A stretch of 63,728 nucleotides of DNA, filler included, from Folioceros fuciformis (taxonomy: Eukaryota): NCBI GenBank assembly GCA_049999805.1. It is 8 parts of 8 records of this genome, joined end to end, with 100 filler letters (N's around TTAATTAATTAA, not from the genome) between each part and the next. Parts side by side here need not be neighbours in the genome. Positions count along the whole stretch, not along the records: positions 3,805 to 27,490 come from JBNGIO010005654.1; 7 more parts are not named here. One strand, given 5' to 3'. The position numbers and the translations under genes were made by a program. Numbering within the stretch: position 1 is the stretch's first letter; the number at the start of each line of letters is the position of its first letter. Positions 3,805-57,686 of the stretch are shown here, one piece after another. Below the pieces are notes generated by a model. It had not been told where the DNA came from and did not search any database. It saw nothing but the letters and a program-made list of their open reading frames with translations.

Positions 3805-4843
3805 CACCGCGTACCTATGACGAGACTTTCATGGCGTACCTCACTCAAGGAGATGCTACCTTTTCACCTCCCACTTCCGCGTCGCAAGTTGGGTCAAGCT
3901 ATGCCTTTTTCCCCTCGTACAGACAATAGTCATTTTTCTCTTCTCCACCACTCTTTTCCTCTTCTCCTCTACCTCCCCCTCCTTCCACTATTGCAAGCTT
4001 GCCATCTGCTACACCACCACCACCTGCTACCAAGTGGGAAGCTTGTGCCAAAGGAGTCGGATAATGCCACCACCACACAAACAAAAACTAGGCGCTCGTG
4101 AGGGGAATTGTGGAAGGACCATCACGTCATCAACCTCATTCATGTTCGAGGAGGATTACAAGTGGAGTTTGACAAAACTCCCAAACAAGGTATGGTCCCT
4201 CATCACCCTACAGTGATTGTGCTTCTCATGTCTGATCGTACTTCCTTCTCACCCGTTCTCCTCGCACTGTAGAGGCATTGATGTATGGAATAAGGTGGTA
4301 ATCAAGCTGTCTTCTATTTGTCCCGACTTTGACAAGAATGGAGAAGCATGCCGACAAAAATGGAAAACAATCTACAATGACTATAAGCACGATAAGGCCC
4401 TGAATGGTATTCTAGGAAATGCCAGGTCTGATAAGTGTCGTTGGTTTGATCTTGTAGACAGGTACATGGGAGAAAGAGCTCATGTGGTTTGTCCCCTAGC
4501 TTCAAGCCATGTGGATTCACATTCCGGCTCACAGATAAGTAGTTCACAGGAGGAAGGCCATGGAGACCCATCACTTGATCCCTCATGTTGTTCACAACCA
4601 CAAGAGCCAAGCGGTGTTGATGGGCATTCCAGTACACCTACTTCTCAAGGTATGCAAAATACGGAAGCTAAGAAGCGGTCAAGGTCTCGCAGTGATGGAG
4701 AAGTAGATAATCATATGTACACTATGCAGCTCTTAGAAAGCCTTACAAGGAATGTAGAAAATAGTGAAGGCCAAAAAATTGCTTCATTACAGAGCTTGAC
4801 TCAAGCCATCACTGTCTTGGTAAGTGCTCTAGGAAATAAGTGA
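3805..4843 (+). mobile_element. PIF/Harbinger Myb/SANT-like DNA-binding ORF (spliced; 5' part decayed)
   Basis: WKDHHVINLIHVRG..KQG, GT-AG intron ~4190-4274, then IDVWNKV..CRQKWKTIYNDYK..CRWFDLVD; convergent with a DDE transposase. Confidence 0.8.
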
Positions 4844-4897
4844 TATGAAATGATAGCATCTTTCTAGCCTTAAATTGTACTAACTCTCACTTACATT

Positions 4898-6260
4898 CTA
4901 ATCACTCTCACTCATGCTTTCGGTCATTTCATTGTCATTCGGAAAAGTGTTCTGGATTACCTTGTGTGTCTTTGCACTGTACATAGCATGTCCGATGGCA
5001 GAAATTCTTCGAACGCCTTCTACATACCCGGGAAGCTCAAGCTCATTTCTATCCCCGTTGTCATAAGTACCACCAGTATGAACTGAGGGCATGGCATTGC
5101 GAGCTCTTACTCCCCTGATTTCAAATAAAGATTCCCTTGCTACGTTACTTGCCTCTGTCTCCATATCACCAAGTACACAACTTTCACAATCATGAATTGC
5201 CTCTTCAAGCCATGCATTATCAAAACTATCCATTTCCTGTATGCACATGTTATGTAGGATAAGACATGCTTGCACCACCCTAGGGACATATTTCTGTTTC
5301 ATGTCCAGCCGTTTAAGAAGGCACCTGAAACGAGCTTTTAACATGCCAAATGCACGCTCTACAGCCATGCGAGTACTACTCTGGACAAAGTTCCAATTCT
5401 GCTGTACTAGTGAAAATCCATCCTTCGAGCCTTTATATGGTGTCAACATGTAAATACAAGGCCAGTACCCTGCATCACCCACCAAACTATATTGTCCTAG
5501 CTTACCACGATCACACATTTGCCCAAGTGTGGTACGCTTGAACAAGTTTCAATCATTAAGGCTACCTACCCAACTGAAATCATAATCCCATACATAGCAA
5601 TGGGTAGAAAACAGTAAGTTGTAGCAACTGAGAGTAAAAGCCCTTGTTGTTATAATAGTCTGCCTTGTTGACAAAGGGTCCTACGATCGGTATGTGGCTC
5701 CCATCCACAGCCCCCACAACAAATGGAATGCCTCTAATGGCTTCAAACTGGCTAGCATACTTCTAGAAGCATACGAGCCGTCGATGGCCATGAAATATAT
5801 GTATCATGTAAGGTTTGCACCAAAGCCGCACAAAATTGGTGAACACATACACAGACAGTAGATGTTCCATATCCAAAGAGATCCCCAATTACCTGCAATC
5901 TGTCACCTCCTGCAAGCATGAGTAAGGACATAGCAACTTTATGTTCAAGTGGCACAGCTTTCCTGCATGAAGTATCTCGAGTTGTGAGGACAGGATTGAG
6001 CTTGGCACAGATGGCGTGAAATGTGGCTTTTCAAATGCGCATTCTTCTCTTGAACATTGCATCACTGTATGAGCCCATGAGCTGTTGGTCAAAGAGTGAC
6101 TGGCTTCTCGCATATGTCCATATACTTCTGGAAATCAAAGAAGCCCAAGTATCTTGCAACTGCAAAACAACGCCCCAAGAACCCAACACCAAAACAACGC
6201 CCCAAGAACCCAACACCAATGCCAATGATGATGAATCAGCCACTTCAATGGCTACATACA
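4898..6260 (-). mobile_element. PIF/Harbinger DDE transposase (HARBI1-like), frameshifted
   Basis: LEHKVAMSL..IGDLFGYGTSTV, GAVDGSHIP, LVGDAGY, SSTRMAVERAFGMLKARF, ACLILHN spread over several frames. Confidence 0.9.
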
Positions 6261-6547
6261 CAAGGACGCCCAATATGATTGCTTGCAAGAGGGGCATGTC
6301 CGTAGGTTGCTTGCAAGAGGGGCATGTCTATAGGTTCCATTGCAATCACGGCTCGTATCGTAGGTACAGCCAAGGGAATGTGGCAGTGCGATGGTGCGCA
6401 GACGAAACGATGAACGAAGCCACGAGATCAAGTACACTTTTATGTCTCTTATTATATCATCTAATAATAATGATAATATTTACATTTTATTATATTAAAT
6501 AATATGAATAAATAACCACATCATCACAATGCTGAAACCATTCCACC

Positions 6548-7136
6548 AGTAATGGCATAAGTGAAATAAGGTGAAAGTTAAAAGTAGAAAGGTGAAAGCT
6601 AAATCTAGAGCTGTCTTGATGAAGAAGCAAGTATGCTTCTTACTGCCTTTGGAAAAAAAATGTGTGTTCCAGGCAAAACCTCCTAAGAAGGATGGAGTTG
6701 TAATGACCACTAGTATTCTAGGATGAGTGGTGTGTATCATTCCCAGTTTTAGCAGTGGCTTAGCTGTGGAGTATAAATAGGCCAGTGTTAGGGTCTTAAG
6801 GATACGGTGATACACTGATACACAAAGAGGCAGACAGTGAGAAGTCTAGCCTGGAGGCATAGCTGTGGAGGGCTTGAAGAGCAAGCTTGTCAGATAGAGT
6901 CGAGGGCAGTAGCCAGTGGGGCGTAGATCGCCAGACTCTTTGTAAGTATCTGGAATAAAGAGCAGCACCTAGAGGAGGTGGTCTGCGAGTCGTCAGTGGA
7001 CGGCGGGCTACTTGGAGCCTAGTGCTGAGTCGTGTGAGAGGGAGTGAGTGAATTGCAAGTGGAGCGCTGCGGAGTGTTTAGACGAGATTCGAGGCCGTTG
7101 CTTCCTTTTACGCTGCGTAAGGAAGGGGGCGTTACT
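6548..7136 (+). repeat. 5' LTR of gypsy element
   Basis: Near-identical to 11720-12308; starts AGTAAT, ends GTTACT; TATAAATA at ~6772, AATAAA at ~6954. Confidence 0.95.
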
Positions 7137-7140
7137 TAGT

Positions 7141-7152
7141 TGGTATCAGAGC
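7141..7152 (+). promoter_or_regulatory. tRNA-iMet primer binding site
   Basis: TGGTATCAGAGC 4 nt after the LTR end. Confidence 0.92.
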
Positions 7153-7254
7153 ATAGTCTATTCCTCCAAGATGGCTAAGCGCTAGAGGATGCAAATACGA
7201 GAGGTTTCCCCTAATCCCCCGCCTCAATAACTCGAGGAAAATCAAGGCAAGGAG

Positions 7255-8355
7255 ATGCCGCCTACCGACTCAGCAGGGCCATCCGGAGACAAATCTGAAG
7301 ATTGGAAGACGCAGATGATGGTCGCTTTACGACAAATTCTCCCCGAAATATTGCCGGAAGTTCTCCAAGATTTGACAGCATCTGGGAAAAAGGCAAGGAA
7401 GGATCCACAGCCTATAGCTCTACAAAATGAGGAAGCGGAAGACAATCAAGATCCTTTTCATATCTTCGAAGCAGTTCCGAGGGCAAATCTGAAATTGACC
7501 GTGCCAGATAAGTATGAGGGAGTAAGGGATCTACAAGCTATTGATTCCTGGATTTACTCTATTGAAAGCTATCTTGCTTCATCTGGCCTGGAGCCTAAGC
7601 ATTACTTAGGAACTGTGGGCAACTTTCTCAAAGGGTATGCTTTGGTGTGGTGGCGAAGTTATTGTGCTAATGTAGCCCAGGGAAATCGAGCACACACCAT
7701 CACAGACTGGGCATCTTTCAAAGAGGCCTTGAAGAAGCAGTTCCAACCTGCGAATGCTTTACGCTTGAGCCGGCAGCTGCTTGATAATATAAAGCAGACA
7801 GGTACCGTACGAGAATATGTAGGTACATTCAGTGAAGCTGTTATGCATTGTACTTCAATGAGTGAAGTTGACAAACTACATCGCTTCATGGTTGGTTTGA
7901 AGGACTGGGCTGCTAACAGAATTGAGTTGTATAGTCCAATGACCTTGGCAGAGGCCATAACAGCAGCAGATGCTATCTCAGATACCTTTCATTCCAACAC
8001 ATTCAACTCCTTAAGAAGATTTCGAGGTAATACCCGTGGACGGTATATGCAAACTAGGGTTTCTTCCAATAATGTTGCAAGAGGGACTCCCAAGGATAAT
8101 GAAAGGAGTACAGTTGTAAGAGGCAACTCCAGTGCGAGCTTCCGTGGGAGAAATCGAGGAGTGCGCAGGGGGCGCGGACCTCAGAGAACAGTGACAATGG
8201 GTTCTCGGAAAGGAGTTTGTTTTGCTTGTGGAGAGCCGGGACATTACGCGAATGAATGCCCCAATACTCAACAAACTTTGAATGTTGTTCAAGACAACCC
8301 ACAGCCCCAAAGACTCAGGATTACAGAAGTATCCGGATCTGAAAATCCCAAATGA
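7255..8355 (+). CDS. Gypsy Gag (retrotransposon gag domain plus CCHC knuckle)
   Basis: LKGYALVWW..WASFKEALKKQF..IKQTGTVREY; CFACGEPGHYANEC. Confidence 0.93.
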   Translation: MPPTDSAGPSGDKSEDWKTQMMVALRQILPEILPEVLQDLTASGKKARKDPQPIALQNEEAEDNQDPFHIFEAVPRANLKLTVPDKYEGVRDLQAIDSWIYSIESYLASSGLEPKHYLGTVGNFLKGYALVWWRSYCANVAQGNRAHTITDWASFKEALKKQFQPANALRLSRQLLDNIKQTGTVREYVGTFSEAVMHCTSMSEVDKLHRFMVGLKDWAANRIELYSPMTLAEAITAADAISDTFHSNTFNSLRRFRGNTRGRYMQTRVSSNNVARGTPKDNERSTVVRGNSSASFRGRNRGVRRGRGPQRTVTMGSRKGVCFACGEPGHYANECPNTQQTLNVVQDNPQPQRLRITEVSGSENPK

Positions 8356-11300
8356 CGGGATTGGCCACATGTTGCACAGGCTACATGTGGTGACTCTCAA
8401 GATGCTGAGGACAGCATTATTCATAGGGCAGGTGGAGAGCTCATGTATATAGAAGGATGTGTGAATCGTGAAGAAGCGAAGATGTTGCTTGATCTAGCAG
8501 CAACACATAATTTCATTTCTCCTGGCAGAGCAAGTAAGCTCGGTTTGACATGGGCTAGTATTTTAGAGCCATGTACAGTGAAACAAGCAAAAGGAAAGCT
8601 GCAGTTCTTAGGACAGCTAGAAAAAGTTCCTTTGCAGATAGGCAATTGGACTGGACAAGCAAGCTTCACAGTTGTAGATATGGATGATCATGAAATCATT
8701 TTGGGCTTAGAATGGATGAAGGCCAATAAGGTATGTGTAGACGTGGACTCACGCACCATACAGATCGTAGGAGATGAAAAGCACAAAGTGAGTTGTGCAG
8801 TCCTTGAGCATCAGCTTGGGCACAAGATTGATGAAGTCATCTCTAAGAAAGAGCTCAAGCGTTGTGTCAAAAATGGAGAGGAACTCTATTTGTTGGTGTT
8901 GCAAGGACTAGAAGATGGTCTTGAGATGGAATCTCAGAAGCAACCAAAGATTCCAAAGGAGATACAGGATGTCTTAGATGAGTTTAAAGACTTAATGCCT
9001 ACTGAGTTACCTCCTTTACCTCAACGGAGAGTTGTAGATCATGAAATTGATCTAAAGCCAGGAAGTGTACCGCCATCAATAGCGCCATATAGATTGTCGC
9101 TAGATGAGCTTCAAGAATTGAAGAGACAAATGTCTAACTTGTTAGCCAAGGGCTATGTTAGAGTCTCAAAATCCCTATTTGGTGCGCCAGTATTGTTTAC
9201 GCGAAAGAAGAATGGAGGATTAAGGTTATGCTTGGATTACAGAGCACTCAACCAGATAACAGTCAAAAATTCCTATCCTTTGCCAAGGATGGATGATATG
9301 TTTGACAGGTTGAAAGGTGCTAAGTATTTTACCAGACTGGATTTGATGGCTGGTTATTACCAGATTCGCATCGCAGAAGGACATGAATACAAAACTGCTT
9401 GTAGGACAAGGTATGGATCTTTTGAATTTCTAGTCATGCCATTTGGACTCACTAATGCACCAGCCACATTTCAGACTCTCATGAATAGTATATTCAGAGA
9501 TCTGTTGGATGAGTGTGTTGTGATCTATTTGGATGACATTTTGATATTCAGTTCTACCTTAGAGGAGCATGTCCAACACTTGAGGAAAGTGTTGGAAAGG
9601 TTAAGGGCAAATTCTTTGTTCTTAGCTATAACAAAGTGTGACTTTGTTAAGGAAGAAATAGACTTCCTTGGATTCATTGTCTCTGCTGATGGAATCAGGA
9701 TGGATCCTGGTAAGGTAAAAGCCATACAGAGTTGGCTGCCGCCAAGCAATGTGCATGAAGTGCGTATGTTTTTAGGATTGGCTAGCGTGTACAGAAGATT
9801 TGTACCAATGTTTGCCAAAATTGCTGCCCCATTAACTGATCTCTTGAAGAAGGTGAAGACATGGAAGTGGGATGAAGAATGTCAAAGGGCATTCGAGTTT
9901 CTCAAGTTGAAACTCAGCACTACCCCAGTACTAGCAATCTATGATCCAAAGAAATATATAGAGGTGTATACTGATGCGTCAGATACAGCTATTGGAGGAG
10001 TGCTTATGCAAGAAGGTAGGCCAGTGGCTTACGAATCAAGAAAGTTGCATGAACATGAGAGGAAATACCCCACATATGAGAAGGAGATGACAGCCGTCAT
10101 CAATTGTCTCAAGATTTGGAGGCACTATCTTCTCGGAAGATCTTTTGTGCTGTACACAGATAATGTAAGTACAAGCTTCTTTTCTAATCAACTACGACTA
10201 AATGCTAGACAAGCAAGATGGCAAGATTTCCTAGCGATGTATGATGTGGAGATTAAGTACAAGCCAGGGAAGGAAAATCTCGTGGCAGATGCTCTTAGTC
10301 GCAAGCAGGAGTTGAGTTTAATGTCTGTTTTTAAGCTGAAGAATCCTAAACTAGCTACAACGCGGATGGTGATTGAGCCAAGGGACACTCACACGCAGAT
10401 TAAAGAGGCTTATTTGCATGATCCATTAGTGCAAGATTGGATCAACGAGATGGAGCAACCGGGGTCTAAGTTTAAGCTTAGAAATGGCTTGTTAATGTTC
10501 AAGCAAAACAGGATTGTGATTCCTGATTCTCAAGAGTTGAGAAAAAAGTTGCTTGCAGAATGTCACGATGTGTTAAGTGCTGGTCATCGGGGAATTGACA
10601 CAACTTATGAGAAGTTGAAGAAGCTGTTTTACTGGCCTGGAATGTACAAACATACTGTAGAGTATGTGAAGTCTTGTGTAGACTGTCAGCAGGATAAAGT
10701 AGAGCAGACAAATCCACGAGGTTTGTTGCAACCCCTGCCTATTCCAAGTGGGCCTTGGAAGAGTATATCAATGGATTTTGTTATGCCATTGCCACCCAGT
10801 AATGGATACACAGCTATCATGACAGTTGTTGATAGGTTCAGCAAGCAAGCACACTTTATCTCCACGAAGAAGCAAGTGAAGGCTTTAGAAGTTGCTCAAT
10901 TGTTTAAGAAGCATATCTATGTGTTACATGGATTGCCTATGCAAATTGTGAGTGATAGAGATCCCAGATTCACAGCGGAAATTTGGCAACAGCTTATGAA
11001 GAGCTTGGGAGTGCAACTATGTCTAAGTACAGCATATCACCCTGATACAGATGGATCTACAGAAAGAGTAAACAGAATCCAAGAGGAATACTTACGACAC
11101 TATGTACAAATGGACCAAAGGAACTGGAGTAATCATCTTGAGGATGCAGAGTTTTGTTATAACAATACTGTACATAGCTCCACAGGCTATACACCTTTTC
11201 AGATGACAGGTAACGAAGCAATGGACGCAGTTTCCATGTTGAATGCTGACGTGTTTGAGACAGCAGCAAGAGAACCACGTGAATTTATTGAGCAGTTAAG

Positions 11301-11709
11301 CGCCAGGCATGAAATTGCTAAGAGGATTTTGGCCAAAGCTCAAAACAGGCAAAAGAAGTTTGCTGATAGGCACAAGAAAGAGGCAGAATTTCAAGTGGGT
11401 GACAAGGTTTGGGTAAAGTTGAAACACTTCCCAGTACCTCAAGGATTGTCCCCAAAGTTAAGGCCTAAGTATGGAGGTCCTTTCGTAGTTCTAAAGCGCA
11501 TTGGGAATGTGGCTTACAAACTACAACTGCCTAATTGGATCTTCTCTCATGATGTGTTTCATGTCTCTTTGCTGAAACCGTTTGTGATTTCGAAAGAGAA
11601 TGACGACATGAACAGATCTTGTCTGGGTTTCACTTCAAGATGTGCAACAAGGATCATGGATGATCTCACGTTATACTGCAGGTCATTGAGGACAATGACA
11701 TCTTCCTAG
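8356..11709 (+). CDS. Gypsy Pol (PR-RT-RNase H-INT), in frame with gag
   Basis: LLDLAATHNF protease, YLDD RT, TDASD RNase H, HHCC zinc finger, ISMDF..SDRD..E integrase, YGGPF; frame open from 8356, first ATG at 8443. Confidence 0.95.
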   Translation, partial: RDWPHVAQATCGDSQDAEDSIIHRAGGELMYIEGCVNREEAKMLLDLAATHNFISPGRASKLGLTWASILEPCTVKQAKGKLQFLGQLEKVPLQIGNWTGQASFTVVDMDDHEIILGLEWMKANKVCVDVDSRTIQIVGDEKHKVSCAVLEHQLGHKIDEVISKKELKRCVKNGEELYLLVLQGLEDGLEMESQKQPKIPKEIQDVLDEFKDLMPTELPPLPQRRVVDHEIDLKPGSVPPSIAPYRLSLDELQELKRQMSNLLAKGYVRVSKSLFGAPVLFTRKKNGGLRLCLDYRALNQITVKNSYPLPRMDDMFDRLKGAKYFTRLDLMAGYYQIRIAEGHEYKTACRTRYGSFEFLVMPFGLTNAPATFQTLMNSIFRDLLDECVVIYLDDILIFSSTLEEHVQHLRKVLERLRANSLFLAITKCDFVKEEIDFLGFIVSADGIRMDPGKVKAIQSWLPPSNVHEVRMFLGLASVYRRFVPMFAKIAAPLTDLLKKVKTWKWDEECQRAFEFLKLKLSTTPVLAIYDPKKYIEVYTDASDTAIGGVLMQEGRPVAYESRKLHEHERKYPTYEKEMTAVINCLKIWRHYLLGRSFVLYTDNVSTSFFSNQLRLNARQARWQDFLAMYDVEIKYKPGKENLVADALSRKQELSLMSVFKLKNPKLATTRMVIEPRDTHTQIKEAYLHDPLVQDWINEMEQPGSKFKLRNGLLMFKQNRIVIPDSQELRKKLLAECHDVLSAGHRGIDTTYEKLKKLFYWPGMYKHTVEYVKSCVDCQQDKVEQTNPRGLLQPLPIPSGPWKSISMDFVMPLPPSNGYTAIMTVVDRFSKQAHFISTKKQVKALEVAQLFKKHIYVLHGLPMQIVSDRDPRFTAEIWQQLMKSLGVQLCLSTAYHPDTDGSTERVNRIQEEYLRHYVQMDQRNWSNHLEDAEFCYNNTVHSSTGYTPFQMTGNEAMDAVSMLNADVFETAAREPREFIEQLSARHEIAKRILAKAQNRQKKFADRHKKEAEFQVGDKVWVKLKHFPVPQGLSPKLRPKYGGPFVVLKRIGNVAYKLQLPNWIFSHDVFHVSLLKPFVISKENDDMNRSCLGFTSRCATRIMDDLTLYCRSLRTMTSS

Positions 11710-11719
11710 TGGGGAAGAG

Positions 11720-12308
11720 AGTAATGGCATAAGTGAAATAAGGTGAAAGTTAAAAGTAGAAAGGTGAAAGCTAAATCTAGAGCTGTCTTGATGAAGAAGC
11801 AAGTATGCTTCTTACTGCCTTTGGAAACAAAATGTGTGTTCCAGGCAAAACCTCCTAAGAAGGATGGAGTTGTAATGACCACTAGTATTCTAGGATGAGT
11901 GGTGTGTATCATTCCCAGTTTTAGCAGTGGCTTAGCTGTGGAGTATAAATAGGCCAGTGTTAAGGTCTTAAGGATACGGTGATACACTGATACACAAAGA
12001 GGCAGACAGTGAGAAGTCTAGCCTGGAGGCATAGCTGTGGAGGGCTTGAAGAGCAAGCTTGTCAGATAGAGTCGAGGGCAGTAGCCAGTGGGGCGTAGAT
12101 CGCCAGACTCTTTGTAAGTATCTGGAATAAAGAGCAGCACCTAGAGGAGGTGGTCTGCGAGTCGTCAGTGGACGGCGGGCTACTTGGAGCCTAGTGCTGA
12201 GTCGTGTGAGAGGGAGTGAGTGAATTGCAAGTGGAGCGCTGCGGAGTGTTTAGACGAGATTCGAGGCCGTTGCTTCCTTTTACGCTGCGTAAGGAAGGGG
12301 GCGTTACT
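11720..12308 (+). repeat. 3' LTR of gypsy element
   Basis: Follows PPT AGTGGGGAAGAG; followed by CCACC. Confidence 0.95.
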
Positions 12309-12945
12309 CCACCACCCTATATGAAACGGTGCGGCCGATCATGGAAAGACTGGCCGGAGCAAGCGTGCCAGGACCGACCTGTCACCGTGACAGTGTGTGA
12401 ATCCAGCCTAAGTACACACTGTCAGGCGTCTGACACCTCCAGACCTATGAATTTTGCGTAGGCTAGGCAGACGGCGTACAGAGGATTGGGTGCACCTTCC
12501 TCGCAGGCGTGCACGACTTGCTTCAGTAGAGCCAGCCTGCTGGAAATGTGTGGGATCAAATGCGGTCGCGCTCCAGGTAGTTAATCGAACGAGTGGAGAT
12601 TTGAGATTAGATTACGTAGAGTATCTAATTAGGTGGTCAATGCCAATATAATTTGTCTTAGGCCACCATTGGTGTTCATGAGGTCTCGTGCCGAGGTGAG
12701 AGTGTCGAAGACGAGCTTTGCCTGATGATTTGCTGAGACTATAAGCCAAGTTCACTTCTGTAGGAACATCTGAGAGCTTGACGACGGATGTCCCATAGAT
12801 CAATAAAACCTATTGACAAGATTCAAAGCCGAAGCACCAAAGTGTATGGAAACACTTGGTTTCTGTGCAATTCAAAGGTGGACATAAGAGATTCTGTCCT
12901 TCCTGACCAGCAGCTCGGCAGCTACGAATAGATCACAGACTAAGC

Positions 12946-15220
12946 CTAACCAGCTGCGATGTGGGTTGGCGGCTCACAGGACCGCCCGACAAGACGATGA
13001 ACCAGTATAGGAAAGCCTGCTTTGGGACGAGGCGCTGGCCAATTCTGCACACCCCGCACTGATCCGATACGCTCCCATCTGATCATGAGTGAATACAGAC
13101 CATTGAGAGAACCATGCGGGAATGGACACAATTTACGAAATCTTGGGAAGAAGGGTGTTCACCTAAAAGTGGTCACCATATAGTGGATGAAGATGAGGGC
13201 TTCCAGCATCGCCAGCTTGTTTCCCAAACAGTAGCGAGAGCCTCCCCCGAACGGGATGAAGGTGTACTGCTTGGTATTATGGAGAAACCGATCCGGGTCG
13301 AACTTGGTGGGGTTGGGGTACAGCTCGGGATCCATGTGCACATTTCTGTAGGTGCAGAATATCTGCCAGTCTTTGGGAAACACTTGTCCTGCACGTCGCA
13401 CATTCGATTAGAGTTGGATGTGATGAGCAAGAGTGGGAGATGCATGAAAGTTGACAAGCTGTGATAGTATTGAGCTGGGAAGGTGGAGCATTGCTTATTA
13501 CCCTTGTACTCAATGTCATGAAGAGCGACCCTGGGAGATAGGGGAACTGGATTCCCAAGACGGAGTGTCTCCTGAAGCACCTGCAAACCAGGAAACAAGC
13601 AGGTAGAAGGCCATCGAAAATTCAGAACCTTGGACGAGCAGAAGCTGGTGGACCTGCTACAGGAGTGATGTCGGTAGGGGAGCGTTACGTACACGATACG
13701 TTATTGGCATCCGCTTTGTGTCTTCCCATGTAAGGGGTTCCTGCGGCGAGCCCTTGCTTGCTCTGACTCCATCCTGCTCATCCTGCAATTTTGAAGCCTC
13801 ACCACATTAAGCACTGCATGAGCTGCATACGAGTTTGATGTCACTACTTAACCATTCCAAGTTGCAGTTAGTAACACGCTGATCAGCACCTTGACTTGAT
13901 GAAGAATGTCCGGGTTCTCCGTCAAGAATTTCACGGCCCAAGCGATAAAGCTTGAAGTCGATTCATGCCCGGCGAGAAGCATGATGAACATTGAGATTCG
14001 AATCTCCTGGTCGGAAAAGTGCTGTTCGTTTTCACGTCTGTTCTGTGCCAAAAAGGACTCGAGGACGTCGTTCTCCTGGACCCCAGCGTCACATTGGCCC
14101 CTCATCGTTCTACGCTTGTCTATGATTTTCTGCATTTCTTTCACGATTTCCACCTTCGCCTACAAGCATCAGATCAAACGGGAGTGTGGATGAACACTGT
14201 GGCATGGCGAGCTCAAGGACAGCACAGAGGCAAAAAATTAAACTGAACGTTCAACTTGACCCAGCAAGATGTAGAGAACTTTGGACACGGGAATGAACAA
14301 GCTGCACGTACCTTCAAAGCCTTGTGGAATGAGAAGCCCGGAAGGTTGATGGGCATGCTTGTGAGACCTTGGGCCAGGACGGAGTACAACTCCTTCAGCC
14401 GCACTGTCATCTTGCTGGGCTGGACACTGCAGGTGGCAGATAACGCAACGTGGAGGCTGTACTGCAGGACGACAAATTTCACAGACCCAAAAGTAAAATC
14501 AGCTGTGCACATATCACACGTCTGGAGCAATAATCACACCATGTCAGCAAGAAAAACCAGGCTGTGCATCCAACTGGTACCAACCTTACTCGTCTCCTGA
14601 TGCAAGATGACTGGCCCAACAGAGTCAGTCCACGCATTAATAGTCCATCGAGCCAGATAATCAAAGCTCCCCTCCACCTTGGCCTTGAGCGACTGAGGCA
14701 GCAGCGGAGGTACCAGCACATTCCTCATTTGCACATGGAACTCTCCCTCCCAAGGAGACGTCCCGTTCAGAATGGTGTCCATGGACTTGGGGTAGCTCGG
14801 AGAGAAGAGATGCGGATGCGTTTGAAGCACGAATCTGAGCGTCTCCGGATCCGACGTCATGATGGTGGGCGTGCCGAACAGGTTGGTAAGAAACGTTCTC
14901 CCATACCTAGCAAACATACAAGACAGCACTACAATCTGCTAAATTGAACAAAAGCAAGACCACCATCACGTCCCCGTGCGCACTCTGACAGCGTAATTCA
15001 ATGGGACTTACCGAGTTCGCTGCAAGTCCCAAAACTTCTGGGGGTCGAGCACAAAGGCCAATCCATCACCAACCAAAGGAAGCCAACAGTACCACCTCGT
15101 GCAAGGAGTTTGGGGGGAGTTTCGAGCATACAGGGTCCAGTACCATCGCAGCCGGACATAGAGACACGGCAGAAGGAACAAGAGTGGAAGCAGCACAACG
15201 CCCACAACAATGCCTTGCAT
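12946..15220 (-). CDS. Cytochrome P450, CYP85-clan-like, about 8 exons
   Basis: N-terminal membrane anchor, WLPLVG, RYGRTFLTNLFGTPT, AGHESTS I-helix, ETLR, PDRF, FGGGSRYCLG heme motif; GT-AG introns. Confidence 0.93.
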
Positions 15221-15339
15221 GTCAGCCGCTGGGATATGATCTCATCTAATTCACTAATCACAGGACAACCATGACATATACAATCACTAACCAACTCTAA
15301 TGCACAAAGTTCAAGTTCATTCACAAATGTTGTCTCAGC

Positions 15340-38293: not shown

Positions 38294-41200
38294 CTCTCAC
38301 TTAGCCAACATTATGCTGACTAGGGTTTGTAACCATAGGTGAAAAAAAACGGCGCCGAGCTAGGTCACAGTCGATGGCGGCTTGCGCAAGGCTTTTCTCA
38401 CCTTACAGTTGGAGCTCTGTTCAGATGTTTGCCAAACTGCTTTGATAGGTTTATGTACGTCGGCTGTGACTTCACGAAAGATGGCCACCAGATACTTCGT
38501 TATGGTATGCTCCCTTGTGCTTACAATTGGTCCTCCCACTGCAGCCTTTGTAGGTAGATCCTTCTGACTGCATGCCTTTAATGTTCATGTGCAGAGCCTG
38601 GTGGCGTTGCACTACAAGGATGCCATCCAGAAGGTTCTATCCGGCTTGAGATGCTGCAGAGTGAGAGTCTGGTTACTAGCTAGGTGGACAGTGCAGGTTT
38701 CTTCTAGGACTCTGGGTCCTCCATTAACCCCATTGCAGCTGCAAATTTCTCATGCTTCTCTCTAGGAAGTGCTTTTGTGAGCAAGTCTGCAATATTGTCA
38801 TGTGTTGACACAAACTGTAGGTTAGCATGTCCATCAGTGATCACTTGTCGTATAAAATGGTGCTTGATGTCCATATGTTTTGTCCTGGCATGCATAAGAG
38901 GGTTTTGTGCTAGAGCTATCGCTGATTGGTTATCACTCAGAAGGAGTGTTGGTGCTTCCTGAGGTTCACCGAGAGATGCTAGCAATTCCCTGCCATGAAT
39001 GATATCTTGTGCTGCTGTAGTTGTAGAGATGTACTCTGCCTCTGTCAAGGACAGAGCTACCACTGACTACTTCTTTGAATGCCAAGCAATAATTTTGGAT
39101 TGTGATTCATCTTGTCCCAGCATTAAACAGTGTGCAAATATTGAGCGTCGGCTGTCAGAATCGGCTGCCCAGTTGGCGTCACAATAGCATGTAAGGAGCA
39201 GGCACTGTGGTCTTTGTTTGTACAGTAGGCCAAGATTAAGCGTACCTCCAAGATAAAGCATACACCGTTGAACAGCCGTCCAATGAGCTGCACCATAATT
39301 GGAGAGGAACTGTGAAGTCACCCCCACAGCATGTGAAAGCTCCGAGCGTGTCCAATTCTGGAAATAGATAAGTACTCCCACTGCTGGTCTGTAGGGTACT
39401 TTCTCCATTTGCATACGCTCCTTCTCAGTTTGTGGACACTGTTCCAGTGTAAGTTTTTCGCCCGTTGCCATGGGTGTTGCTGCAGGTTTTGCATTCTGCA
39501 TTCTGAACCGTGCTAGGACTTGGACAACAAATTGAGCCTGGTGTATAAAAATTGTGTGCTTGCTCAGGTTTTGACGGATCTGAATACCTAAGAACCAAGT
39601 AAGCTGCCCCAAATCCGTCATGGAAAACTCTGAAGTAAGGATACCCTTGACCTTATTCATTTGAGACGGACTACTGGATATTATTACTGCATCGTCTACG
39701 TATAAGGCCTGGTAGGCTACCCCATTCTTATCACAGAGTTGATAGACATTTGAGTCTGCACTACTTTGCACAAAACCACACTTCTGGAGGTACGTGTCTA
39801 TTCTTTTGTACCACTCTTGTGGTGACCGCTTTAAGCCATACATTGTTTTAATTAGTCTACATACCTTGTTTGGGTTCTTGGGGTCAACGTACCCCTCTGG
39901 TTGACGCATATAAATGGTTTCCTCTAGGTCTCCGTTGAGGAATGCAGTTTTAACGTCCATGTGCTGTAGAAGGTAATCGTGTTGAGCAGCAATTGCCAGC
40001 AGAGTGCGGATGGATGTTGCCCTGACCACTAGAGAAAAAGTCTCTTGGTAGTCAAGTCCTTCTACTTGGCTATATCCGCGTGCAACCAGTCTGGCTTTGT
40101 ATCGTGCAATAGTACCATCAGCAGCTTGTTTCAGTTTGAACACCCACTTGCAAGTCACTGCCTTCCGGCCAGGTGGTAAGTCCTCCAGAACCCAAGTTAT
40201 GTTGTCCATGATGGATTTGTACTCAGATTCTATTGCAGCATGCCACTTTTCCTTGTCGGGAGAGTTTATGGCTTCCTGATATGACTGGGGCTCTCCCAAG
40301 TCAAGAGGCATGTCTTCCTGTACCAAGAAACTCTGATATGTAAGTGGAGGCTGAATCCATTCATCCGGGGATGCTGCATGATGCCTTGAGCTGCGCCGAA
40401 GGACTGGCACTTCTTCAGGTACGTCCTCCTCCTGTGGTATAGGATCATCTGGAGATGAATCAGCATCTAATAGATTAGGCTGATGCTCACTAACCTCTTC
40501 AACTTCATCTTCAGGGAAGTCAGATGGTTCATCTTCACTGTCACTATCAGGGGGTACTACTGGTTGGGAGGACTTCTGAGTAGTAGTAAGATCGCCATCA
40601 TCACCTTGCTCAGCATCAGAAGGTTGAGACTGCATGTCTAACTGCGACTGTGTCAATGCAGGTGTAAGTAACAATCTCTTGTTAAACACTACACTGCGTG
40701 CATGAGTAGTTGTCCTAGTGACAGGATCTAGGAGTTTGTAGCCTTTAATGCCTTCAGTGTACCCTATGAACACAAACTTTCTTGCTTTGTAGTCTAACTT
40801 GACTCTTTGTTTTTCTGCAAGGTGTGCATATGCCGGGGAGCCGAAAATGCGTAAGTGATTGATACGGGGTTTGTCACTAGTCCAACGCTCAAAAGGTGTG
40901 CAGCGCGGGAAAGCCTTAGTGGGGAGCCGGTTCGTAATGTAGGCTGCAGTAGCAACGGCTTCACCCCAATAGCTTTGTGGGAGGCCAGCAACTTTCAGCA
41001 TGGACTTGGCTGCAGATTGCAGATGCTTGTTATTTATTTCAGCAAGCGGATTTTGTGAGGAAATATAAGGTATGGTCAGCTGCCTTTGGATTCCCAGCGC
41101 CTTGCAATAATCTTGAAAATCAGCTGAGATATACTCCCCGCCGTTGTCACTGCGCAGAGTTTTGAGTTGCTCTCCAGTTTGCCGTTGTGCAAACGAAACA

Positions 41201-43225
41201 TATTCTTTAAAACAGCCAAGCGTATGGCTCTTGTGTTTGAGGAAGTAGACAACCACATAGCGGCTCCAGTCATCAATAAAAGAGAGTATGTATAAGGCTC
41301 CACCCCAGGTAGCTGTGGACATAGGACTGCAAAGATCAGAATGAACAACCTCGAGAAGCTTGGTGGCTCGTGTAGGATTGTCATCCGTATAGGGGAGTCG
41401 CTGATGCTTCCCGAACACACATGCCTCACAGAATTACTTGTCCACAAACTGAAGCATGAATTTTTCTCTGTACAGAGTTGTGCTGGCCACCATTTGTTTG
41501 ATCTTCTCGAAATTAGCATGGCCTAGATAGCAATGCCACAGCATAGCTGCATCCTTGTCTTTCTGCTTGGTGTCCTGACTCATGTTGACTTGTGCACGTG
41601 TAGGAGGTAGACCTAGCTTAGAGGTGACATTAAGTTGATACAGGTCGTGGAATGGTGCCCCACTTGCTACTAACTTATTTTTATACTGTGGATCAGTGAC
41701 TGTACATTGTACCCCTGTAAAGGACACATTCAACAAATGCTGGGTAGTCAACTTGCGAACTGACACTAGGTTCTTCACCATTGAAGGTACGTGAAGAACA
41801 TCCTCTAAGACCAAGGTAGTTTTGTCAAATAGAGTGATAGAGACTAACCCTATCCCCTCTATTTGCATACCACTGTCATCTCCAAGCAATACGAATTGTC
41901 CAGGTGGCAATGGCTTGTACTCTATGAAAGACTTTTTGCAGTGACAAATGTGAGAAGACGCACCAGAATCTATAAACCATACATGCTTATTGGATGCGGT
42001 GGAGACCATGCATACAGCTAGTAGAGTGTTTGCCTTACGGTGTACCACATTGGATTCAGGTGGTGCCGATCTTCTGGCTTCGCCGGCCTTCTTCTTTCTG
42101 CAGTCGGCTTCCCAGTGTCCAGGAATGAGACACCAGTTGCAAGGCCCCTTCTTTTTAGCTAGAGCTTGAGGTGAACATTTCTTGTAAGTAGCGTTGTTGT
42201 TGTTTGGTGTCTAGGACTGCCTTGGTGGTTGTCTCCTGGGCCCCTTGTTTGCGTAGAGCGCCCTTGTGGATGACTCTCCTCGGGAGGAGGTGCCGCCTTG
42301 ATTGACAATTCTGGTGGACTCCTCCTCGAGAAGAGCTCCAATCACTTCAGATAATGTGACAGTAGGAGCCTGTCCTGCTGATGTATTCTGGGCTGCAACA
42401 CGCAGTGCAGAACTCAGGTTGCTTACAAAAGTCCGGTAGCTGGGAGGAAGAGAGAGAAGAAGAGCAACTGCCGCTTGCATCTCCGTGGTCTTTGTTCCGC
42501 TTGAGGTAAGCTTAGACCTCAGTTGTCTAAACTTCACCACATGTTGCTCGACTGATTCATGTTCACGCATCTTGCAGTTGTAGAATGCTCTTGTGGCGCC
42601 AACCATTGAAGAGCCATTGTTAACTTGATAGGTATGCGTGAGAGAGTCCCATGCTTCCTTGGTGGTAGCCACATCTTGTGTATGTGACATCATAGATCCA
42701 TCTAGTGCAGACTGGATAACAGCAAGAGCTCGAAGATCGAGCTTCTCCCAAGCCTCAATTGCAGTAGGAGTAGAAGTAGCAGCAGGAGGTTTGGGTACAG
42801 CACCAGTGACTACCCCCCACAGCCCATTTTCCTTGAGAATAGTTTGTACTCTAAGAGACCAGATGTCGAACTGAGTGCCAGAGAAGCTGTCCTCCTTAAA
42901 GTCTACTTTCAAGGTAGTGACAACAGGTACTTGATTGGCCATTGTATTGATTACTTGTGATGCAAGTGTTTGTGCGACCAATGCTGCTTGGTCTCTACGT
43001 GTATCTGCTAAGGCTTTCGCAAGACGTGCTCTTTGAATGGCAGCTAGTGTTGGATCTACAGTATCTGAACTACCTTGTGATGAGGACTGGGAATAAAGTG
43101 AGAGTGGATCTTCAGGTAATGTGTTAGATACAGGTATGACACCCCTGCCTGTGCCTCTGACTTTTCTAGTACCTTTCGGAACCTTACTTCCACGTCCTCG
43201 GGCGTTGTATGACATGTACAGGGGT

Positions 43226-43838
43226 TCACAAAGGTAGTGCAGCCTCAGCTTCAAGGGCTGCCAGCTGCTCCACGTGGCTTGGATAATATTTCTGAATAAC
43301 CTTGATCATCTTCATGATTGGTCGTTCTTCTTCTTCTTCTTGTCGAGATGTGAATTGGTGCACTTGTGATATGAACCGGTGCGAGTGAAGAAGACTCAGG
43401 TGCAGAATTTTTCAAGGATAACACTGTAAGATTCTTAATCTGTCCTGTCAGTGTTCTAATGTGAGTATTAATGTTGTTAATCTCATTGGACAGGTTTACG
43501 AATCGCTGCCACACCTGTGCAGCGTGAGTCGCAAGTAGATTGTGGACTTGAGCTGTCTGTGACCTAATCAAATGGAGCACCTCTATCAGCGACCTATCGG
43601 ACAGTGCGGGTGATGCTTCAGTCCTAGGATGTGCAAACTGACGTCTTCTTTGTTCAGAAAAATCGCGTGATTCGTGAAACCTTTGCCTAATCTGGCTTCT
43701 AGGTGAGACAGGAGAGTCAGATTTCTGGTGTCGCTAACAGGCTTGTGCTGTGTGACGCCTATACTAACTCTTCTTGACTTTGTGCGTGTGTAGAGGATAG
43801 AGATTGCAATGCGTGTCAAAGAAGCAATGCAGATTCTG
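43226..43838 (-). pseudogene. Copia leader ORF2 remnant of copy C
   Basis: RSQIRQRFHESRDFSEQ..LIRSQTAQV..HIRTLTGQIKNL..PVHITS, frameshift, then IMKMIKV..EQLAALEAEAALPL*. Confidence 0.72.
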
Positions 43839-51162: not shown

Positions 51163-51603
51163 TAGTGACTTGAGCTTGTGTATAAAAGGGGACCTAGCTA
51201 AGGGCTAAGTGAAGTTCAGTACATTCGAGTTGAGATGAGTATCTCCTCAAAGCCTTGAGAGCACTGGGTGCTTGGGCTAAGCCTTGAGAGCATGTGTTGC
51301 TTGGGCTGTGAGGGCACATGAAAGGTGCTGTGAAGGAGCTGTGGGAGGAGGCCAAGAGAAGGGAGAGCTAAACTCCTAGCTTAGGCAAAGATGGAGAGTT
51401 CTCTCTAGCCCTCCAGCTCTGTATGTTCTTGTTGACTCGTGATTTGAATAAAGAGCAGCAGCAAGGGTGCTGGCTGCGAGTCCTCCTAGAAGAGGAGGGC
51501 GGGCTACTTGGAGGCCTAGTGCTGTGTCCGGTGTTTAAACTTGATCCCTGTTTTGGCTTCTAACTGCGTGGTTCTGCCCCACCCCGTGGAAGGGGGTTTT
51601 ACT
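51163..51603 (+). mobile_element. 3' part of an LTR related to the 6548-12308 gypsy
   Basis: Shares AATAAAGAGCAGCA, CTGCGAGTC, GCGGGCTACTTGGAG..CCTAGTGCTG and the end GGAAGGGGG..TTACT; no PBS follows. Confidence 0.8.
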
Positions 51604-56259: not shown

Positions 56260-57686
56260 GGATACCATACTCACTTGCCCACAAAGACATATGCCAAAGT
56301 CAAGGAGTACTTCCATTGGGAAGTGATGCGCGCTGACTACATCAAATGGGTACACTCCTGCCAGTCCTGCCAGCAAGCCAAGCCTAGCCATCAGAAGACG
56401 CCAGGTCTGCTATTACCCATGCAAATTCCAAGTGGATGATTCAGGTCAATCGCCATGGACTTCATCACCCACTTGCCACGTACCCGTTCTGGGAAAGATA
56501 GTATCTGGGTTGTCACTGACAGGTTCTCCAAGGTATGCCATTTTGTCCCTGTGACCTCCACCATCACAGCATCCAAGCTCGTTGGGGTATTCGTCCGTGA
56601 GATCTTTAGGTTGCATGGAGCCCCAGAAGACATCGTCTCTGACTGGGATGCTAAGTTCACCTCAGGGTTCTAGAGGACATTCATGGAAACCCTGGGCATC
56701 AAGCAAAACATGTTGTCAGCATATCATCCAGAGACAGACGGGCAAACAGAGAAACAAAACCAGGTCCTGGAAGACATGCTTCGCCACTTCACTCATGAGA
56801 AACAGACTAGGTGGGAAGAACTCCTCCCTATGCTGGAGTACGCCTACAACTCGTTGAAGCATACGGCTACGAGGGTGGCCCCGTTCAAGCTGCCCTATGG
56901 AGAAACTCCGCCACCACCAGGCTTGTGGCCCAGCAGCCAGGAGAAGTGGCGCAGTGCAGCCGAGGTTGTAGAGGATATCTGGCATGAGGTCAAGTTAGCG
57001 AAGGAGAAACTCCTCGCTTCCCGGGACAGATCCTGCAAATCAGCCAACAAACACCGCCGGGCAGTCAGCTACAGCGTCGGCCAACAAGTGTGGCTTCGCG
57101 TGAAGCCTCACCGATATCCAGCTCTCATCCAGTCGCGGGACAAGCTATCCTACCGATATGCCAAACCCTTCACAGTGTCCATACAGATCAACCCGGTAAC
57201 GTACCAGCTCGACCTCCCCGCTGAGGGGCGAGACATTCCACGACTCCATGCTCAAGCTGGTGATCTCCCGCCCACCACCCGCCGCCACAGCCCAACCTGC
57301 ACACCCACCAGACCCTTCTGTCGAACAGCGACCATATCCACACCCTTCTTCTCATCCGAGCCCAGCCCAAGGCGGCTCCACTGCTCAGTGTCCCGCCATG
57401 GCCAGTCCCACCGTTCCAGACAGCTTTGGTTCGGAAACCCTAGCACAGTTGCCAAGTTTTGGCCTTCACCAGCCCCATCGTATCCTCCAGTGCCGTGACC
57501 GCCAGCTCCGATCCCGCTGTGTGTCGGACTTCCTCGTGGCCTGGACAGGCAAACTTGACAGTGCTGTGACTTGGGAACCCACAGCCTTTTGCAATCGCTT
57601 CCCTCACTTGCGGGCTCAGATGACAGCTTCCCGAGCTCCAAGACGGATCAGCTAGGAGGACCTGGCCAGCTTAAGTGGGGGAGAAT
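56260..57686 (+). mobile_element. Chromovirus (Ty3/gypsy) integrase + chromodomain remnant with PPT
   Basis: MDFITHLP..DRFSK..IVSD.D, AYHPETDGQTE, PHRILQCR..FLVAWTG..VTWEP; PPT AAGTGGGGGAGAA then TG. Confidence 0.9.

Follow-up and report, generated by a model that had tools for sequence, protein, structure and literature searches.

The element and its gag-pol border

The window, i.e. the whole stretch of DNA analysed (63,728 nucleotides from Folioceros fuciformis, filler included), contains a Ty3/gypsy LTR retrotransposon of 5,761 nt at 6548-12308, with LTRs, a target-site duplication, a primer-binding site, a polypurine tract and the domain order GAG-PR-RT-RH-IN. Its features are as follows.

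6543..6547, + strand: target-site duplication CCACC, left; the same 5-mer stands at 12309-12313
6548..7136, + strand: 5' LTR, 589 nt, AGTAA start and TTACT end; 2 differences on comparison with the 3' LTR
7141..7152, + strand: primer-binding site TGGTATCAGAGC, from the sequence
7171..7230, + strand: in-frame ATGs at 7171 and 7189, then stops at 7183 and 7228
7255..8355, + strand: gag, 366 codons from ATG 7255 to TGA (Pfam PF03732 at 2e-16, PF19259, PF00098)
8350..8364, + strand: stop context AAA-TGA-CGG-GAT-TGG (stop 8353-8355, 8-nt spacer 8356-8363)
8364..8391, + strand: hairpin 1, predicted by folding; 9 bp, U-U mismatch, 2 bp, ACAG loop
8401..8418, + strand: hairpin 2, predicted by folding; 7 bp, -7.1 kcal/mol
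8356..11709, + strand: pol, 1,117 open codons; protease, RT, RNase H, integrase, SH3
11711..11719, + strand: polypurine tract GGGGAAGAG
11720..12308, + strand: 3' LTR, 589 nt
12309..12313, + strand: target-site duplication CCACC, right

The LTR termini are unusual, being AG..CT and not TG..CA, and the 5' LTR carries TATAAAT at 6772 and AATAAA at 6954. We take the primer-binding site to be of the initiator tRNA-Met type; chromoviruses are usually primed by tRNA-Met. The gag product comprises a capsid domain and a CCHC zinc knuckle (8218-8259), and pol holds the catalytic motifs of RT, RNase H and integrase.

As an earlier note on this DNA had proposed, gag and pol (open at 7231-8352 and 8356-11706) share one frame and are parted only by the TGA at 8353-8355, which is followed by CGG. 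This TGA sits past the zinc knuckle and ahead of the protease. The 29 open codons that the note counted from this stop to the next in-frame ATG, at 8443, were likewise borne out, a run of that length having by itself a chance of 0.25. With one in-frame stop downstream of the nucleocapsid part and upstream of the protease, the element has the gag-stop-pol layout of retroelements such as MuLV, Tj1 and Tca2, the sharing of the stop within the family being based on the majority contig of one sequencing run (X1) and one contig of another (X3). The linker of 60 codons that joins zinc knuckle to protease and contains the TGA makes up 4.0% of 1,484 codons and 4.1% of the weighted nonsense opportunities.

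The context AAA-TGA-CGG-GAT-TGG matches the Virgaviridae pattern xxA-stop-CGx-xxx-xxG. This full-motif context represents 0.11% of the weighted nonsense opportunities in the gag-pol ORF (0.66% for TGA-CGG/CTA alone) and is available at 6 of its 1,480 codon positions; among the 103 stops that close ORFs of at least 100 codons in the whole window, the gag TGA is the one that fits it.

Hairpin 1 agrees with the stem that had been proposed: CCACATGT at 8365-8372 is predicted to pair with ACATGTGG at 8383-8390, with G8364-U8391 as the closing pair and with two G-C pairs, G8374-C8381 and C8375-G8380, beyond a U-U mismatch. The proposed 8-nt spacer (8356-8363) holds when the stem is taken to begin with the G-U pair. 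The predicted stem would start within the 7-12 nt past the stop that Type II readthrough signals require. Pair probabilities for hairpin 1 are 0.89-1.0 whichever of four contexts (45-600 nt) is folded, and the folding energy of 8356-8400 is -21.9 kcal/mol (z -4.79), a value equalled by 0 of 200 shuffles. The 45 nt after the stop have the lowest energy among the 1,470 segments of that length in gag-pol (mean -7.0, sd 3.1), the segment length having been picked on the hairpin itself. By z-score other segments come near, the best of 294 sampled reaching -4.57, and the coding region has four perfect stems of at least 8 bp. For a pseudoknot with hairpin 1 nothing convincing was found, the best loop pairing being 6 bp, G-U rich and more than 70 nt off; Rfam gave no family at the junction, and its one weak match (E 0.19) was on the other strand, away from the junction. 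As candidate features of the gag-pol junction, a pseudoknot, a frameshift and splicing were each judged weak.

Family copies and more distant relatives

The earlier note held that a sense codon at the stop position in sibling copies would mark a simple nonsense mutation. Contigs were compared from runs X1, X2 and X3, and from X4, a bisulfite-like run, none of the datasets that carry the sequence being recorded as RNA. Two contigs, X1 record 7 (8273-8558) and X3 record 17 (8193-8448), read TGA-CGG at this position and carry the hairpin with an identical stem. The X1 contig has a depth near the stop of 283.6 out of 315.8 (90% of the run), with diverged contigs at 7-17, values to be read with the provisos that depth does not equal copy number, that contigs lose rare variants and that X1 and X2 perhaps derive from the window's source sample. 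It differs from the window copy at one other letter, which does not lie at the stop, because all X1 contigs differ from the window at 8541. The X3 contig, from a different sample and a different study, has no differences from the window copy.

At seven other sites, among 1,201, the window copy departs from all or nearly all of the depth in X1-X3; therefore, a private stop would have been visible. Five of these seven private differences are of the C-to-T type, the class that also yields nonsense codons; three are synonymous and four are not, numbers too small for use. Among the rows listed, the stem shows one change, C to T at 8366, in a single diverged contig from X1 and another from X2. To judge from the X1 majority contig and the X3 contig, the stop is common to copies of the family and not private to this copy.

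Beyond the family, a protein search with pol gave its best 120 homologs at 35-51% identity, 90 of which have gag and protease in one ORF. A FastTree phylogeny of 113 rows, with no named reference element among them, places the element on a long branch (0.61), outside both a 92-row clade whose named rows are from seed plants and a 6-row clade with a Riccia protein. The gag protein search gave no matches, and against cluster representatives the best ordinary matches of gag, at 26-46%, are uninformative on the junction. There were no matches of the junction region to proteins shorter than 816 aa, no exact-sequence matches of four window proteins in the protein collection and 0 matches of the junction DNA pattern in metagenome contigs. 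Scans with pol gave 21 distant loci (27-41%) in metagenomes and nothing in viral and prokaryote contigs, and a gag scan of viral contigs gave 15 matches, to the zinc knuckle only. Across the protein, metagenome, viral and prokaryote searches nothing closely related turned up in another species, and a spurious-looking host ORF used for an atlas search likewise returned nothing.

Several features bear on the present state of the element. The protease site reads D-L-A (8491-8499, Asp at 8491), also in X1 record 7; the third place is Gly in 99 of 101 aligned homologs and Ala in none. At E 0.1, Pfam matched no chromodomain in the final 49 residues, and one was found in the homologs P0031 and P0106. 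The ATG at 7171 has a strong context and lies in the gag frame, with the stops at 7183 and 7228 behind it in this copy; the ATGs at 7171 and 7189 either open short upstream ORFs or are remnants of a gag start that has decayed in this copy. The pol product departs from 12 of 176 highly conserved columns (the homolog median being 0 per domain), and other deep-branching rows depart from 2-15 in all. Judged by a D-[TS]-G protease and, if started at 7171, an unbroken gag, the element would not count as autonomous, and D-L-A, the stops at 7183 and 7228 and the absent chromodomain appear to weigh against present-day function. These three observations are all additional to the earlier note. The putative readthrough signal may come from a working ancestor even should the family of today, or the copy in the window, be defective.

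Comparison with known readthrough systems

According to the portion of PMC3159437 available, the pattern xxA-stop-CGx-xxx-xxG with a stem after an 8-nt spacer is found at 35 of 35 Virgaviridae replicase sites. The stop context of the element would, from its sequence, belong with Type II signals (UGA-CGG/CUA, structure-stimulated), and fits the Virgaviridae motif more fully than the earlier note, which cited UGA-CGG plus a 3' structure, had claimed. The tobacco rattle virus UGA-CGG context gave 9% readthrough in leaves. In the Type II signals of Virgaviridae (tobra-, peclu-, furo- and pomovirus) and alphaviruses, as excerpted, the stem has at least 12 bp with a span of ~138 nt (PMC3159437), whereas the element has a compact, local 28-nt predicted hairpin (9+2 bp, 4-nt loop) and is a nuclear retrotransposon with its stop at the gag-pol border.

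Among retroelements, MuLV shares the stop ending gag, the 8-nt spacer and the 3' structure but, in the accessible parts of these sources, uses UAG-G and a pseudoknot where the element has UGA-C (PMC3159437, PMC2194720); the element has no MuLV-type (Type III) signal, i.e. UAG-G with a compact pseudoknot. Candida Tca2 shares gag-UGA-pol, the 8-nt spacer and a structure, but is of the copia type, and from the available text its junction alone was without readthrough in an S. cerevisiae reporter (PMC2194720). Transposition of fission-yeast Tj1 requires its gag TGA, and Tj1, Tcry1 and Tosmo1-3 likewise have an in-frame TGA between gag and pol with AA before and C after, Tj1/Tosmo conserving GAA-TGA-CT (PMC4600332 and bioRxiv 2022.12.06.519325, in part). 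These elements are self-priming Tf1/sushi members with no 3' stem mentioned in the same excerpts, unlike the element, which has a tRNA-type primer-binding site and groups near plant elements.

Within plants, rice RIRE2 (Retand) is cited, in the section consulted, as an unverified leaky-stop candidate (PMC2754532), and soybean SIRE1 is named, in a partially available source, among elements with an in-frame stop between gag and pol or pol and env; RIRE2 is a non-chromovirus gypsy element and SIRE1 a copia element, i.e. both are of other lineages than the element. Its best pol homologs are plant elements of ~1,540 aa, at an identity of only 39-51%. Selaginella Galahad shares a tRNA-Met primer-binding site, a 5-bp target-site duplication and a CCHC gag, but Galadriel/Galahad chromoviruses are described, in the passages available, as having a single ORF, mostly with a chromodomain (PMC3350952, PMC6317226), whereas the element has the gag stop, no chromodomain and AG..CT ends.

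Readings of the gag stop

Like the earlier note, we infer that programmed readthrough at the TGA probably sets the Gag:Pol ratio, a reading supported by the shared stop and the fuller fit to the Virgaviridae motif. The TGA would be an inherited, family-wide gag terminus acting as a programmed leaky stop, at which the majority of ribosomes would release Gag and a minority would decode UGA by a near-cognate tRNA and continue into pol, giving Gag-Pol; the A at -1, the CGG and the stem at the ribosomal mRNA entry channel may lift readthrough to a few percent. The effect of the signal on readthrough, and thus on the Gag:Pol ratio, we infer from the Virgaviridae, alphavirus and MuLV signals.

A founder nonsense mutation in a single gag-pol ORF, with the defective lineage amplified in trans by a helper, seems unlikely to us. 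It would make the motif and hairpin either a coincidence or the mark of a packaging function, and it is favoured by the single protein that joins gag and protease in the 90 homologs noted above, by the possible family defects (D-L-A, no chromodomain) and by the two further in-frame stops of this copy. In the copia element at 39067-43305 of the same window, long ORFs are likewise separated by single in-frame stops, which shows that decay does produce stops of this kind. However, a founder mutation requires three coincidences, in the linker position (4%), in the motif (0.1%) and in the best hairpin of 1,470 at the known spacing, and pol has stayed open for 1,117 codons with its RT, RNase H and integrase motifs.

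Slightly less probable again is that the TGA is the true end of gag and that Pol is made otherwise, by a Tca2-like bypass, for which the excerpted account of Tca2 is a precedent (PMC2194720), by ribosomes that reinitiate or initiate internally at ATG 8443, or from a minor internal promoter. ATG 8443 lies where the protease fold has its first strand, but a hydrophobic residue, often Met, belongs to the fold here in single-ORF homologs; moreover, its context is weak (C at -3, T at +4), and out-of-frame ATGs at 8369, 8385 and 8402 lie between it and the stop. The Gag part of Gag-Pol normally packages Pol, and free Pol would be made without it.

An Ogre-like intron over the stop, spliced in a minority of transcripts, or a frameshift bypass is very improbable: Ogre elements do splice a region between two ORFs, AG dinucleotides occur in the stretch from the stop to the catalytic Asp, and a CCCAAAT stands at 8347, but pyrimidines amount to 6-11 of 20 nt at the 13 AG sites, none of which has a strong tract, a score of 4 of 6 is reached at the four donor-like sites upstream, 0 of the 5 contig joints listed have GT..AG ends, the X3 contig is unspliced over the junction (weak evidence, X3 being only guessed to be RNA, at depth 5.5), pol is in frame 0 with both other frames closing before the protease site, and the CCCAAAT heptamer lies in the wrong phase to serve a -1 shift out of gag.

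Readthrough between gag and pol is itself already known, from MuLV and Tj1, with a candidate in rice RIRE2. In a 2009 paper, as far as its available text goes, verified plant readthrough was all viral, with only candidates among rice gypsy elements (PMC2754532). The literature searched, which took in few subscription papers and no supplements, contained no report of UGA-CGG with a stem in a plant gypsy element. On balance, we lean towards the view that a plant gypsy lineage of deep branching, which lacks a chromodomain and integrates with AG..CT ends, independently evolved the full Virgaviridae cassette, xxA-UGA-CGG-xxx-xxG with an 8-nt-spaced stem, in place of the single ORF.

It is a standing question how plant retroelements with a single ORF keep Gag and Pol in balance. 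The compact putative 40-nt signal matching the viral motif is easily testable with published plant dual reporters. Annotation pipelines would miscall such families as broken, and LTR surveys based on TG..CA may overlook them owing to their AG..CT ends. If programmed readthrough is the true reading, the element would be a plant-genome case of structure-stimulated gag-pol readthrough and would represent convergence of a nuclear retrotransposon and plant RNA viruses.

The gag-pol junction and its predicted hairpin

The gag-pol junction of the Ty3/gypsy LTR retrotransposon described here (the element) supports a candidate reading that we regard as probable, i.e. programmed readthrough of the gag UGA to make Gag-Pol. 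The main features of the element are as follows.

6548-12308 (+): element, with two LTRs of 589 nt each, 2 sites differing between them
CCACC: target-site duplication of the element
7141-7152: primer-binding site
11711-11719: polypurine tract

The earlier note's description of the junction holds: gag and pol share one frame, parted by TGA 8353-8355 (the open frame runs from 7231 to the TGA in gag and over 8356-11706 in pol), the next in-frame ATG past the stop lies 29 codons downstream at 8443, and a stem of eight Watson-Crick pairs (8365-8372/8383-8390) plus G8364-U8391 is present. Beyond the eight pairs, this predicted stem-loop (hairpin 1) has a U-U mismatch, two G-C pairs and a 4-nt loop; its pairs form with probabilities of 0.89-1.0 when up to 600 nt of context is folded. 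The 45 nt 3' of the TGA fold at -21.9 kcal/mol (z -4.79; equalled by 0 of 200 shuffles), the lowest folding energy of 1,470 equal-length windows in gag-pol, the 45-nt length having been picked on hairpin 1 itself. Because a z-score of -4.57 is found among 294 other sampled windows and the coding region has four perfect stems 8 bp or longer, hairpin 1 is the strongest predicted hairpin of the gag-pol coding region, but of a non-unique kind. No Rfam match was found at the junction. An alternative 6-bp stem (AAUCCC/GGGAUU, 8344-8362), which would place the UGA in a 7-nt loop, is predicted to be compatible with hairpin 1.

The TGA falls within the 60-codon linker from zinc knuckle to protease, which makes up 4% of the ORF. 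Its context is AAA-TGA-CGG-GAT-TGG, the final G being the first base of the stem; according to Firth et al. 2011 (PMC3159437), xxA-stop-CGx-xxx-xxG is conserved in 35/35 analysed Virgaviridae replicase sites, where an 8-nt spacer separates the stop from a stem. Only 0.11% of single-base nonsense opportunities in the ORF yield this motif (transitions weighted 3:1), with 0.66% for the looser class TGA-CGG/CTA, and the gag TGA is the one stop to fit it out of 103 that close window ORFs of 100 codons or longer. The linker position, the motif and a best-folding hairpin with the known spacing are unlikely to coincide by chance, even with other motif classes and spacings allowed for.

Family copies, possible decay and rival readings

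Contigs of four public sequencing runs (X1-X4) were compared with window positions 7800-9000; X1, X2 and X4 are from one sample, which may be the window's own source, and X3 is from another sample and another study. Contigs lose rare variants, and X4 looks bisulfite-treated. A sense codon at the stop in sibling copies, which the earlier note would have taken as the mark of a simple nonsense mutation, was looked for, and TGA is kept in X1 record 7 (8273-8558) and X3 record 17 (8193-8448). The former contig accounts for 283.6 of the depth of 315.8 near the stop (diverged contigs, 7-17) and differs from the window by one letter; as the window differs from all X1 depth at 8541, this difference lies outside the stop, hairpin and protease motif. 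The X3 contig shows no difference from the window. The depth ratio suggests about 20 near-identical copies, depth being no copy number. At seven other sites the window copy has a letter that all or nearly all of the X1-X3 depth lacks, so private changes are detectable by this comparison, and the stop is not among them. Older diverged copies are roughly 85-90% identical, with one stem change among the listed differences (8366, in one diverged contig each of X1 and X2). One diverged contig (X1 and X2) is missing 17 nt from 8402, almost exactly a second predicted hairpin (8402-8418).

Several points count against the readthrough reading and leave room for a defective lineage mobilised in trans, which we consider unlikely. 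The protease site is D-L-A (8491-8499) in both the window copy and the high-depth X1 contig, its third place being Gly in 99/101 aligned homologs and Ala in 0; the protease fold is otherwise recognisable. The first leader ATG (7171), which has a strong context and is in the gag frame, soon meets stops at 7183 and 7228. Ahead of the long gag frame, 7171-7230 thus holds two ATGs and two stops in that frame; this stretch, which lies outside the read-contig comparison, represents either upstream ORFs or decay of the window copy; the ATGs over 6790-7330 are all in the gag frame (5/5). The window copy deviates at 12/176 highly conserved pol columns, the RT, RNase H and integrase catalytic motifs being present, and the C-to-T type accounts for five of the seven differences private to it. 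Between this copy and the contigs, internal divergence (0.6% in the compared region; at most ~1.1% by word share) is above the LTR-pair expectation, so the LTRs may understate its age or decay. All these points, however, leave the motif and hairpin unexplained.

Somewhat less probable again, taken jointly, are reinitiation and production of Pol by a route other than simple readthrough, as in Tca2, whose similar look cautions against assuming simple readthrough; reinitiation at ATG 8443 would start from a weak context, past three out-of-frame ATGs. Splicing or frameshifting past the stop has little support in the sequence and read contigs, and is very improbable.

The element, its relatives and its surroundings

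Pfam domains occur in gypsy order (capsid, zinc knuckle, protease, RT, RNase H, integrase, SH3), with no chromodomain by Pfam. At 11590-11709, pol ends ~35 residues past the integrase SH3, abutting the polypurine tract, and the chromodomain of relatives is absent. The integrated ends, seen in one copy, are AGTAA..TTACT (6548-6552, 12304-12308), i.e. AG..CT and not TG..CA, with a 5-bp inverted repeat; their positions are fixed outside by the target duplication and inside by the polypurine tract. LTR ends starting AG are known from Drosophila gypsy. A survey of 50 plant genomes lists seven LTR motifs other than TG..CA, each with the first T retained (bioRxiv 137141), and lotus Copia ends retain it as well (PMC9804982).

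Identity to the best 120 pol homologs is 35-51%, and 90 of them have gag and protease within one protein (search limited to proteins of 614-1,955 aa). A FastTree analysis of 113 rows puts the element on a long branch that belongs neither to a 92-row clade, in which the rows with names are seed plants, nor to a 6-row clade that takes in a liverwort protein. This sequence-based placement points to a Galadriel/Galahad-like element whose host may be a non-seed plant, and is only a lead because the tree had no named reference element. Protein, metagenome, viral and prokaryote contig searches found no close relative in another species.

The whole element is inside one contig piece (3805-27490). Seven N44-TTAATTAATTAA-N44 linkers (3705, 27491, 33422, 43839, 51063, 58806, 61484) join separate contigs, so features on either side of a linker are not true neighbours. 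Other features of the window are:

4217-6030: PIF/Harbinger-like remnants left of the element, with a Myb-like ORF (+) and a DDE_Tnp_4 ORF (-)
~13100-15300 (-): multi-exon cytochrome P450 gene, downstream end towards the 3' LTR; an exon of it has Streptophyta look-alikes, which makes the host a plant
29055-30887 (-): 610-codon ORF without introns, with weak AAA/STAND NTPase matches; its C-terminal part resembles nuclease domains of Crinkler-type proteins
39067-43305 (-): copia element; single in-frame stops at 41434 and 42211 interrupt its polyprotein frame
51446-51528: similarity to the element's LTR, 81% over 79 nt
56287-57219: unrelated gypsy integrase fragment, 35%

Neither copia stop fits the readthrough motif; both are probably decay.

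Readthrough in comparison with known systems

In its sequence and predicted fold, the junction looks like a Type II viral readthrough site (UGA-CGG/CUA plus 3' structure), and the stop placement is the same as in MuLV, Tj1/Tosmo and Tca2. Unlike the MuLV type, the element has UGA-C, and no pseudoknot was found. Three sources describe plant retroelements as mostly single-ORF (PMC5580714; PMC6317226; bioRxiv 2022.12.06.519325), and RIRE2, a rice gypsy element, has been cited as an unverified readthrough candidate (PMC2754532); the literature searched contains no report of a plant gypsy element with a UGA-CGG motif and stem.

The tobacco rattle virus context gives 9% readthrough in leaves (PMC2754532), retroelements require Gag to Pol at ~20:1 (PMC2194720) and Tj1 transposition depends on its gag TGA (PMC4600332). 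With programmed readthrough, termination at the UGA would give Gag, and its occasional decoding by a near-cognate tRNA would give Gag-Pol; by analogy with the viral signals, three features would favour such decoding, namely the A that precedes the stop, the CGG that follows it, and the stem, which would sit at the mRNA entry channel.
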